Assembly (NCBI RefSeq): GCF_030013595.1 | Contig: NZ_CP122769.1 | Length of the DNA stretch: 64,000 bases | From: Escherichia coli | GTDB taxonomy: Bacteria > Pseudomonadota > Gammaproteobacteria > Enterobacterales > Enterobacteriaceae | Strand: one strand, 5' to 3' | In this document: in pieces, positions 13,017-16,067 of the stretch | How the letters are laid out: each line of letters begins with the position of its first letter | Numbering within the stretch: the stretch's first letter is position 1 | Notes under the pieces: generated by a model | What the model was told of the DNA's origin: nothing | The model's database searches: none | Seen by the model: only the letters and a program-made list of their open reading frames with translations | Made by a program: the position numbers and the translations under genes

Positions 13017-13688
13017 ATGAATGCTATACAAAAGTTAGTTGAATCTATTCTTGTTAAAATGGGTTTTGTTGGCGCTGTAGTGGAAAATATATATTTGGAT
13101 TCAAAACCATTTCGGCATATTCGATTTGTGGCTGATATTCCAGTAATATCTTTTCTACCTCATTTGGTGAAATATCTTAAGGGTGCAGACCATCTTTACA
13201 GTGGTAACGATGATTTGCATCCTCTTTTCATTTATTTTTCCGAAGCGGCTACATTAAAAGCAGGTCCTGTAAATCTCGCGAACTTTCGTTTTGAAGTTTC
13301 TATAGCTTCAACTCATTTACGACTGGTCTCAGAGCAGCCTGATTTGCTTTTCAAAGGATTTAACCGGGATAATCTAGAATACGTTTATTACCGCTCAGAT
13401 TTGGCCTCTAGGGATCTTATACTAGGCCTTGTTGAACACGGTTCTCCTTTCATAAAACATCTACATGGACTTATACAAAAGCGAATTTTAAACGAGTTCT
13501 CTCTGATTTTTTCTGTTCTTGAAAAGATTTTAGAAAGCGCGAAGCCACAAATTCTTGCTTGCTTCCATAGTGTTGATTATGAAATGAACGTAAAAATAAT
13601 AGCCGAAGCTATACCTGAAACTGTATCTAATCAGATAGTCACATCTGATTATATAGTTAATGTTAGCGCCAATGATATAAGACTGTAA
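13017..13688 (+). pseudogene. 5' part of a gene interrupted by the IS21-family element
   Basis: Stop codon TAA (13686-13688) lies inside the first bases of the IS end TGTAATTCGCC; the reading frame resumes in the same frame after the element (15787 onward). Confidence 0.5.
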
Positions 13689-13761
13689 TTCGCCATTTGG
13701 GTTGTCCGCTCCACCCAACATGTTGTTTCCTTGAGGTTCTCACACCAGAAAGGACATCGAC

Positions 13762-14934
13762 ATGCTGAGCAGAGAGGACTTTTACATGATAAAGCAAATG
13801 CGTAAGCAGGGTGCGTACATTGTCGATATTGCAACTCAGGTGGGTTGCTCTGAGCGCACCGTCAGACGCTATCTTAAATATCCTGAGCCCCCGGCCAGGA
13901 AGACACGCCACAAAATGGCCAAACTGAAGCCATTCATGGACTATATCGACACTCGTCTGGCTGAGAACGTCTGGAATGGCGAGGTCATCCTCGCGGAAAT
14001 TAAAGCGATGGGTTACACCGGCGGGCGCTCCATGCTGCGCTACTACATCCAGCCCAAACGCAAAATGCGGCCATCAAAGAAAACAGTCCGCTTCGAGACC
14101 CAGCCCGGTTACCAGCTGCAGCATGACTGGGGGGAAATCGAAGTGGAGGTCGCGGGACAACGATGCAAAGTTAACTTCGCGGTTAATACGCTGGGGTTCT
14201 CACGTCGCTTCCATGTCTTCGCCGCACCAAAGCAGGACGCTGAACACACCTATGAATCCCTGGTTCGCGCCTTCCGCTACTTCGGTGGCAGTGTGAAAAC
14301 GGTGCTGGTTGATAATCAGAAAGCTGCAGTGCTGAAAAATAACAACGGAAAAGTGGTGTTCAACTCCGGGTTCCTGTTGCTGGCCGACCACTATGACTTC
14401 CTGCCACGGGCCTGCCGCCCGCGCAGGGCCAGAACCAAAGGCAAAGTGGAGCGGATGGTTAAATATCTTAAGGAGAACTTCTTCGTCCGGTACCGCAGGT
14501 TCGACAGCTTCGCCCATGTTAACCAACAGCTGGAGCAGTGGATGGCTGATGTGGCTGACAAGCGGGAGCTTCGTCAGTTCAGACAGACACCAGAACAACG
14601 CTTCGCGCTGGAACAGGAGCATCTGCAGTCGTTGCCGGATACGGACTTCGATACCAGTTACTTCGACATCCGCCATGTCTCCTGGGACAGCTATATCGAG
14701 GTTGGCGGCAATCGTTACAGTGTTCCCGAAAACCTGTGCGGGCAACCAGTCTCAATACGTATATCGCTGGATGATGAGTTGCGGATCTACAGTAATGAGC
14801 AGCAGGTAGCCTCACACCGGCTCTGTTCAGCATCATCTGGCTGGCAGACGGTACCGGAGCACCATGCCCCGCTCTGGCAGCAGGTCAGCATGGTTGAGCA
14901 TCGCCCACTGAGCGCTTATGAGGAGCTGCTGTGA
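13762..14934 (+). CDS. istA: IS21-family transposase IstA
   Basis: 390-aa product with N-terminal HTH ([13 protein letters not shown]) and DDE integrase core; sequence recognisably IS100/IS21 IstA-like. Confidence 0.9.
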
Positions 14935-15731
14935 TGCATGAACTTGAAGCACTGCTGAGCCGCCTGAAAATGGAGCACCTGAGCTATCACGTTGAAACCC
15001 TGCTGGAGCAGGCAGCGAAAAAAGAGCTGAACTACCGGGAGTTCCTGTGTATGGCGCTGCAGCAGGAATGGAACGGCAGGCATCAGCGTGGCATGGAGTC
15101 CCGGCTGAAGCAGGCTCGCCTGCCATGGGTCAAAACGCTGGAGCAGTTCGACTTCACCTTCCAGCCAGGTATCGATCGTAAGGTTGTCCGGGAGCTGGCT
15201 GGGCTGGCGTTCGTGGAGCGCTGCGAGAATGTGATCCTGCTGGGACCTCCTGGTGTTGGTAAAACCCATCTGGCTGTTGCTCTCGGTGTAAAAGCAGCAG
15301 ATGCGGGGCACAGAGTACTCTTCATGCCACTGGACAGGCTGATCGCCACGCTGATGAAAGCGAAACTGGAAAACCGGCTGGAGCGCCAGCTACAACAACT
15401 GAGTTATGCCCGGGTGCTGATCCTGGACGAAATAGGCTATCTGCCGATGAACAGAGAAGAAGCCAGCCTGTTCTTCCGGCTACTGAACCGTCGATATGAA
15501 AAAGCGAGCATCATCCTGACGTCAAATAAAGGCTTCGCAGACTGGGGAGAAATGTTCGGGGATAACGTGCTGGCAACGGCGATCCTGGATCGGCTACTGC
15601 ATCACTCAACCACACTAAATATCAAAGGAGAAAGCTATCGGTTAAAGGAAAAACGCAAAGCCGGAGTGCTGGCCAAAAACGCAACGCCAATCAGTAATGA
15701 TGAAATGGCGGAAAGCGGACAGCAAAAGTGA
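14931..15731 (+). CDS. istB: IS21-family helper ATPase IstB
   Basis: Walker [12 protein letters not shown], Walker [10 protein letters not shown]; start overlaps istA stop (ATGA). Confidence 0.9.
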
Positions 15732-15786
15732 TCAAATAGCGGACATTAAAAATGGCGAAAACCGGCCATAAATCTTGGCGTTGACA

Positions 15787-16067
15787 TTAATTCTATATCA
15801 GATGCGGACAAGTTTATAAATCATGTTCGTCGCTATTTAGCAGGCAGGGTAATGAAGAGGCGGATATACGCTGAATTAGATGTTTGTGAAGAAACATCAA
15901 GTATTTCACTAGTGAACTTAGGATGCTTTACGTCTCCTCTGCTCGTTACGGAATATCAAATGTTTAAGCCACACTCTTCAGGGTTATATCGAAAAGCTAT
16001 AAACAACTCCTTAAAACAGTTCAAACCAGAAATGCATGTACCTTCTGAAGAACTCTTTTATAATTAA
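15787..16067 (+). pseudogene. 3' part of the gene interrupted by the IS21-family element
   Basis: Frame is open from the IS end to stop at 16067 and is the same frame (mod 3) as the 5' part; combined length about 316 aa, matching neighbouring genes. Confidence 0.45.

Follow-up and report, generated by a model that had tools for sequence, protein, structure and literature searches.

The 64,000-nucleotide stretch of DNA that we analyzed (here, the window) consists of the backbone of an IncHI2 resistance plasmid. Genes without known function, all co-oriented, make up a long run that includes the locus, which is situated between trhI, a Tra gene, and the tellurite-resistance cluster. Five tandem genes, which we designate A to E, form an array there, and gene C is divided into two parts by a complete IS21-like insertion sequence (IS) that carries istA and istB between terminal inverted repeats (TIRs) and is bordered by a target-site duplication (TSD) (Table 1). 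Over its first 50 kb, the window shares 99.994% identity with plasmid NZ_CP117034.1, and the 2.3 kb around the element are 100% identical to the Salmonella enterica IncHI2 plasmids NZ_CP117034.1 and NZ_OY754830.1.

An insertion of this kind is an ordinary event, and this one is already present in public annotation: at the corresponding positions, NZ_CP117034.1 lists istA, istB, and a 223-aa fragment (WP_272815992.1), the last entered as a "hypothetical protein" rather than as a pseudogene. A search of the literature for the insertion and for the array genes found nothing on either.

Table 1. Features of the array and of the insertion sequence, with positions in the window
Feature	Position	Strand	Basis or remark
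Array gene A, 292 aa	11064-11942	+	Apparent remote paralogue of C; hhalign A-C 96% probability, 259 columns
Array gene B, 311 aa	12013-12948	+	Apparent remote paralogue of C; hhalign B-C 99% probability, 279 columns
Gene C, 5' part (codons 1-215)	13017-13660	+	ORF continues to TAA at 13686-13688 inside the IS
TSD TTAA, left copy, 4 bp	13657-13660	.	Empty-site comparison
IS21-like insertion sequence, complete, 2126 bp	13661-15786	+	5'-TGT...ACA-3'; empty site, identical second copy, end-to-end relatives, 2126-bp contig
Left terminal inverted repeat, ~50 bp	13661-13710	+	Inverted-repeat alignment, conservation in relatives, motif search
istA, predicted DDE transposase, 390 aa, intact	13762-14934	+	HTH, rve, Mu-transposase C-terminal domain; D122, D184, E230
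istB, predicted AAA+ helper ATPase, 265 aa, intact	14934-15731	+	Walker A GPPGVGKT 104-111; Walker B LILDE 162-166
Right terminal inverted repeat	15738-15786	-	Inverted-repeat alignment, conservation in relatives
TSD TTAA, right copy, 4 bp	15787-15790	.	Empty-site comparison
Gene C, 3' part (codons 216-306 and stop)	15791-16067	+	Empty-site comparison
Terminator-like hairpin and T-run	16087-16105	+	After gene C, before gene D; consensus scan only
Array gene D, 312 aa	16134-17072	+	Paralogue of E
Array gene E, 318 aa	17244-18200	+	Paralogue of D

Limits of the element and its target duplication

Four independent lines of evidence agree on the limits of the element, 13661 to 15786, and on its length of 2126 bp. 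The first is the empty site. When we removed the element and one TTAA in silico (2130 bp), the result was a 921-bp ORF of 306 aa, which is collinear, as a single ungapped piece, with a gene that stands uninterrupted in 1108 plasmid records (at least 99% identity). The restored ORF differs from pSTM6-275 by a single mismatch, distant from the junction, and by zero gaps; the junction ...TATATAGTTAATTCTATATC... is identical in the two, and the empty site reads ...ATAGTTAATTCT... with a single TTAA. The second line of evidence is another copy of the element in OY754830.1, of the same plasmid lineage, which is 100% identical over exactly 2126 bp and is flanked on both sides by the 5-bp repeat CCTGG. 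The empty site of this second copy, with a single CCTGG within a hok toxin gene, is 100% identical to other IncHI2 plasmids along 400 bp.

Third, relatives from Citrobacter, Klebsiella, and Enterobacter plasmids (91.6% identity) and IS21 itself (~88%) align to the window from 13661 to 15786, and the element and these relatives have in common the left terminus TGTTAGCGCCA... and the right terminus ...GGCGTTGACA. Fourth, a 2126-bp Logan contig corresponding to the element is present in at least 20 samples, and such a contig, of exactly this length, is what a multi-copy repeat usually leaves when it collapses. In addition, the GC content is 54% inside the element versus 36% in the flanks, and the terminal motif TTCGCCATTTNNNNTGTCCGCT has exactly two occurrences in the 64 kb, in inverted orientation, with 0.08 expected by chance.

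In the IS21 family, TSDs measure 4 to 8 bp. The initial annotation, made from the window without reference sequences, had found no clear TSD; the two TTAA copies that border the element were revealed by the empty site. The length of the duplication varies for the same element, from 4 bp (TTAA) here to 5 bp (CCTGG) at the sister site. The first IS base and the next base of the target are both T, so we also weighed a 5-bp duplication, TTAAT, with an IS of 2125 bp. We rejected this arrangement, given that the sister copy still starts with TGTTAG although the target there continues with C.

An element of 2103 bp (13684 to 15786), lacking a TSD and inserted precisely in frame, as the initial annotation proposed, would require a history of insertion that was unusual or had left the element degraded. 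Although the TGTAA at 13684 resembles an IS21-type terminus, the right end finds a partner in the internal block TTCGCCATTT...TGTCCGCT, and 2103 is divisible by 3, the 23 bp at 13661 to 13683 are missing from the empty site, are found in the second copy, and are conserved in relatives, while TTAA borders the ends at 13661 and 15786. We consider the shorter element extremely improbable; the TGTAA only resembles a terminus and lies 23 bp inward of the true one, and the empty site, the second copy, and the relatives all give the longer element.

A recombination scar, in which an inversion or deletion between two identical copies of the IS left the present flanks accidentally adjacent, deserves almost no credence either. 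The plasmid does carry two identical copies in opposite orientation, through which a large plasmid segment could be inverted, but recombination between them would have exchanged the repeats. Instead, each copy has its own matching repeat, TTAA here and CCTGG there, and both flank pairs rejoin into known contiguous backbone.

We are nearly certain that, in this IncHI2 backbone, an intact IS21-like element transposed recently into gene C between codons 215 and 216. The sequence offers no evidence against a simple insertion. In such a transposition, IstA would make a staggered cut at TTAA, and repair would produce the 4-bp direct repeat. The insertion truncates the gene C product after 215 native residues and adds 8 IS-encoded residues, and loss of the conserved C-terminal third makes inactivation almost certain. 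That the flanks stand in frame is a 1-in-3 accident of the combined length of IS and TSD (2130 bp).

Genes, ends, and relatives of the element

Both proteins of the element pass curated models for the IS21 family. IstA scored 281.9 bits against NF033546 (the NCBIfam model of IS21 transposase, cutoff 160) and contains the Pfam domains rve, Mu-transpos_C_2, and HTH, whereas IstB scored 298 bits against NF038214 (IS21 helper ATPase, cutoff 200) and matched PF01695 with E = 1.3e-88. The stop codon of istA and the start codon of istB overlap in the sequence TGATG. Because both genes have the length found in IS21, and because both ends and the TSD are intact, this copy of the element looks competent for transposition.

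Judged by the presence of IstA, IstB, TG...CA terminal repeats, and a short TSD, the element is a member of the IS21 family. In ISfinder practice, elements with roughly 95% DNA identity or more are treated as the same IS. With ~88% DNA identity to the copies that PGAP labels as IS21, the element is neither IS21 itself nor an isoform of it, and PGAP labels the element "IS21 family" only. IS21 and the element nonetheless align over their full length, with 94.6% identity in IstA and 94.7% in IstB, and their lengths are similar (2126 bp for the element, ~2131 bp for IS21). The prototype, in the copies to which PGAP gives the name IS21 in E. coli and Shigella records, shares with the element a 390-aa IstA, a 265-aa IstB, the overlapping stop and start codons, TGT...ACA termini, a right tip of TTGACA, a -10-like hexamer in the left TIR, and a TSD of 4 to 5 bp.

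The closest lineage that we found is an unnamed IS21-family element on Citrobacter, Klebsiella, and Enterobacter plasmids (for example, pKPC-933d, NZ_CP026213.1), which has the same length of 2126 bp and the same ends. Members of this Citrobacter-type lineage are 98.5% identical to the element in IstA, 97.4% in IstB, and 91.6% at the DNA level, and the single copy inspected, that of pKPC-933d, has a 4-bp TSD, AGTT. For the element in the window, itself an unnamed relative of IS21, exact termini and TSDs are now available. Among named elements, the best relatives in our searches were IS21 and ISEc62. Of the two references that the initial annotation had suggested, IS100 and IS21, the second is the closest named relative; IS100 (Yersinia) belongs to the same family but was in no search the closest relative of the element.

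The imperfect inverted repeats of ~50 bp comprise two conserved blocks, and the motifs CGCCAWT and TGTCCGCT recur in both ends. This arrangement fits the TIR architecture of repeated blocks, L1/L2-R1/R2, that has been described for the IS21 family (PMC10122671). The left TIR contains a -10-like hexamer, TATAAG, at 13676 to 13681, and the tip of the right TIR is TTGACA (15781 to 15786), an outward-facing -35-like hexamer. At a hypothetical tandem junction of 2 to 3 bp, TTGACA and TATAAG would be 17 to 18 bp apart, a spacing that we computed from the sequence only. In the IS21 family, two such hexamers make up a promoter only where the ends meet in a tandem or circular junction. IS21 has been described with this layout, the -35 hexamer being carried by its right TIR and the -10 hexamer by its left TIR (PMC10122671).

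A more distant sequence relative is IS5376 from Geobacillus, a family member with a solved IstA structure (PDB 8b4h). Its IstA aligns with that of the element over the whole length (phmmer E = 7e-80) and shares the same domain order, with its catalytic DDE triad D124, D187, and E233 aligned to D122, D184, and E230 of the element, and its TIRs likewise consist of repeated blocks. The 5-bp duplications reported for IS5376 (PMC10122671) compare with 4 bp at the present insertion and 5 bp at the sister copy.

The interrupted gene and its array

The ORF fragments at 13017 to 13688 and 15852 to 16067, the latter a 71-aa C-terminal ORF, belong to one reading frame. As the initial annotation had stated, the upstream frame ends at a TAA within the IS, and the same frame is open past the right IS end, through 16067. 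The single interrupted array gene that it proposed is likewise borne out: aligned to references, the flanks rejoin into one gene rather than forming unrelated frames, and the uninterrupted homologues in 1108 plasmids are one gene, not two separate genes. The restored protein, however, has 306 residues instead of the ~316 given earlier, a figure that included 9 IS-derived codons.

The present product of the 5' part has 223 aa, of which 215 are native and the last eight, VSANDIRL, come from the IS end. The IS and TSD together are indeed divisible by 3, so the description of the insertion as in frame is arithmetically correct, but it carries no functional consequence, since translation comes to a stop codon only 26 bp into the IS. 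The same arithmetic had worked for an element of 2103 bp by coincidence, since 2130 and 2103 differ by 27, a multiple of 3.

Most of the invariant C-terminal residues of gene C lie downstream of the break. In orthologues with identities down to 32%, these are S218, A220, D221, R229-Y230-L231, G233-R234, R238, T268-E269-Y270, and K283. In an AlphaFold model of the gene C protein (pLDDT 83, pTM 0.79), the break falls just before a helix at residues 217 to 231 and a C-terminal sheet and helix. Because the conserved C-terminal third is lost, loss of gene C function, as the initial annotation had anticipated, is very likely on the basis of conservation and the predicted structure. The plasmid persists without gene C, which suggests that this conserved gene of the IncHI2 backbone is dispensable.

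The proteins of the array fall into four clusters: A, B, C, and D/E. D and E are clear paralogues, linked by BLASTP at E = 3e-37, and BLASTP cross-links for gene B extend down to 1.5e-10. Profile comparisons with hhalign connected C to B and A with the probabilities given in Table 1 and gave weaker links for A-B (73%) and A-D (76%); B-D and C-D were not significant. From these comparisons, gene C appears to be a remote paralogue of its upstream neighbors A and B, and the array appears to consist of two remote paralogue groups, A/B/C and D/E. The initial annotation had called the interrupted gene and its downstream neighbors paralogues; the term fits the upstream genes A and B, but C and D gave no significant link. 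Kinship of gene C with D and E is plausible; in AlphaFold models of C (pLDDT 83) and D (pLDDT 90), helices and strands follow one another in a similar order, as read from each model separately.

In diverged IncHI-type plasmids, whose gene C orthologues are 34 to 51% identical, the corresponding position is occupied by a tandem series of four or five genes of ~300 aa each. The syntenic array sits downstream of a conserved module encoding AAA_5, DUF3150, VWA, a small ORF, and DUF7146/Toprim_3.

Other plasmids have independent insertions in the array: a Serratia plasmid has an IS903-like element in its gene C, and pSTM6-275 has IS1203 in its gene D. Such independent IS hits imply that, at least in some hosts, a plasmid can survive without these array genes.

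Among 1.84 billion representatives, a phmmer search with gene C gave no more than 19 hits, mostly gene C orthologues or fragments of them. Gene C had no family match in Pfam, NCBIfam, PHROGs, or PADLOC beyond two chance-level PHROG hits (E of ~0.004); the five array genes as a set likewise matched nothing in these four collections, and no solved structure was a convincing relative. The five-gene module could conceivably encode an undescribed plasmid function, such as establishment, host interaction, or anti-defence, a proposal that we regard as speculative and rather unlikely. If it were true, the natural IS knock-outs (IS21-like, IS903-like, and IS1203) would be ready-made mutants for testing the module.

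Outward transcription and spread of the insertion

The initial annotation had also suggested that outward-directed IS promoters might act on the downstream paralogues. In a regulatory insertion of this type, either the -35 hexamer at the right end or read-through from istB would drive the 3' fragment of gene C together with D and E. The right IS end terminates in a perfect TTGACA, the right TIR of IS21 carries a -35 hexamer (PMC10122671), and istAB and the array genes are co-oriented. However, the hexamers 15 to 19 bp downstream of the right-end TTGACA (ATGCGG, TGCGGA, GCGGAC, CGGACA, and GGACAA) include none that is -10-like, and a consensus promoter scan found no promoter at the right IS end. 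At the left end, where a hybrid promoter might arise, flank hexamers at -35 spacing match TTGACA at no more than three of six positions by our own count.

As for read-through, the consensus scan found no terminator-like site on the + strand between the end of istB (15731) and 16087, and transcription continuing from istB could change downstream expression; yet the terminator-like hairpin at 16087 to 16105 precedes gene D, and one IS21 copy on its own has a weak promoter (PMC10122671). We infer that the downstream genes are little affected by the insertion. We judge a regulatory insertion to be very unlikely, and a regulatory role is not demonstrable here.

In PLSDB, ~1115 records contain gene C; 1108 of them are collinear with the restored gene and two have the insertion. 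The exact element (at least 99% identity) occurs in two PLSDB records only, both carrying this same insertion, and within PLSDB the variant at this identity is confined to the present IncHI2 lineage. Because the insertion is rare and the two plasmid copies of the element are identical, these data point to a recent event in one sub-lineage. In a larger protein collection, the exact truncated product of gene C was found on seven contigs and the exact IstA on six.

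The interrupted gene and its insertion site

The 2,126-bp IS21-like element entered gene C at a point in AT-rich DNA that adjoins a 13-bp inverted repeat. In the empty site, by which we mean gene C without the element and with a single TTAA, short inverted arms (ATATAG and CTATAT) lie on either side of that TTAA; given the AT-rich sequence, these arms are probably due to chance. In RefSeq, the 223-aa fragment truncated by the element (WP_272815992.1) is listed not as a pseudogene but as an ordinary hypothetical protein, and the 3' fragment of the gene carries no annotation there.

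Upstream of gene C, the intergenic region that separates it from gene B contains a perfect palindrome, which overlaps a second perfect inverted repeat of 13 bp. This palindrome may terminate transcription in both directions or serve as a binding site for a protein.

Features in and around the array
Feature	Location	Details
Upstream module	window 3904-10193	AAA_5 (MoxR-like) ATPase, small ORF, DUF3150, ~670-aa VWA protein, 73-aa ORF, DUF7146/Toprim_3 protein
Tandem array	window 11064-18200	genes A to E
B-C palindrome	window 12959-12997	15-bp stem, TTTCTCCCATAGGGA/TCCCTATGGGAGAAA
Truncated gene C fragment	window 13017-13688	
Inverted repeat	window 13624-13655	TATCTAATCAGAT/ATCTGATTATATA
Pre-insertion site	window 13651-13668	
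Gene C 3' fragment	window 15791-16067	
Tus-like gene	window 20802-21764	PF05472
Second IS21-like copy	OY754830.1, ~181.8-183.9 kb (L012:3900-6025)	outside the window
IS1203	pSTM6-275, L002:6990-9400	gene D region
~1.06-kb element with IS903-like transposase fragments	Serratia CP091126.1, L016:2440-3500	gene C, nucleotide 435-444

Conservation of the array and its neighbors

Across diverged IncHI-type plasmids, represented by the window and the related loci L005 to L010, synteny is kept for a tandem run of four or five ~300-aa genes, which fall into groups A, B, C, and D/E. The array genes had no match in Pfam, NCBIfam, PHROG, or PADLOC, and their confident AlphaFold models had no convincing relative in the PDB. 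All of the related loci that were examined retain the upstream module, which is similar to a MoxR-VWA type system. The gene for a Tus-like replication-terminus-binding protein adjoins the array in all related loci and is followed by a tyrosine recombinase gene and then an Hha-family gene.

The same array has been struck independently by IS elements on other IncHI2 plasmids, namely, pSTM6-275 and Serratia CP091126.1. Knockouts of array genes are tolerated.

Copies of the element on nearly identical plasmids

The Salmonella enterica IncHI2 plasmid OY754830.1 carries a second 2,126-bp copy of the IS21-like element that is 100% identical to the first and lies in the opposite orientation on the same plasmid. 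This copy sits in a toxin gene of the hok family, at its 3' end, and is flanked by a 5-bp duplication (CCTGG). The large segment between the two inverted, identical copies could undergo inversion.

Over 50 kb, the window differs from NZ_CP117034.1, another S. enterica IncHI2 plasmid, by two substitutions and one 1-bp indel, the latter falling inside the first ~5 kb (window about 1-5000).
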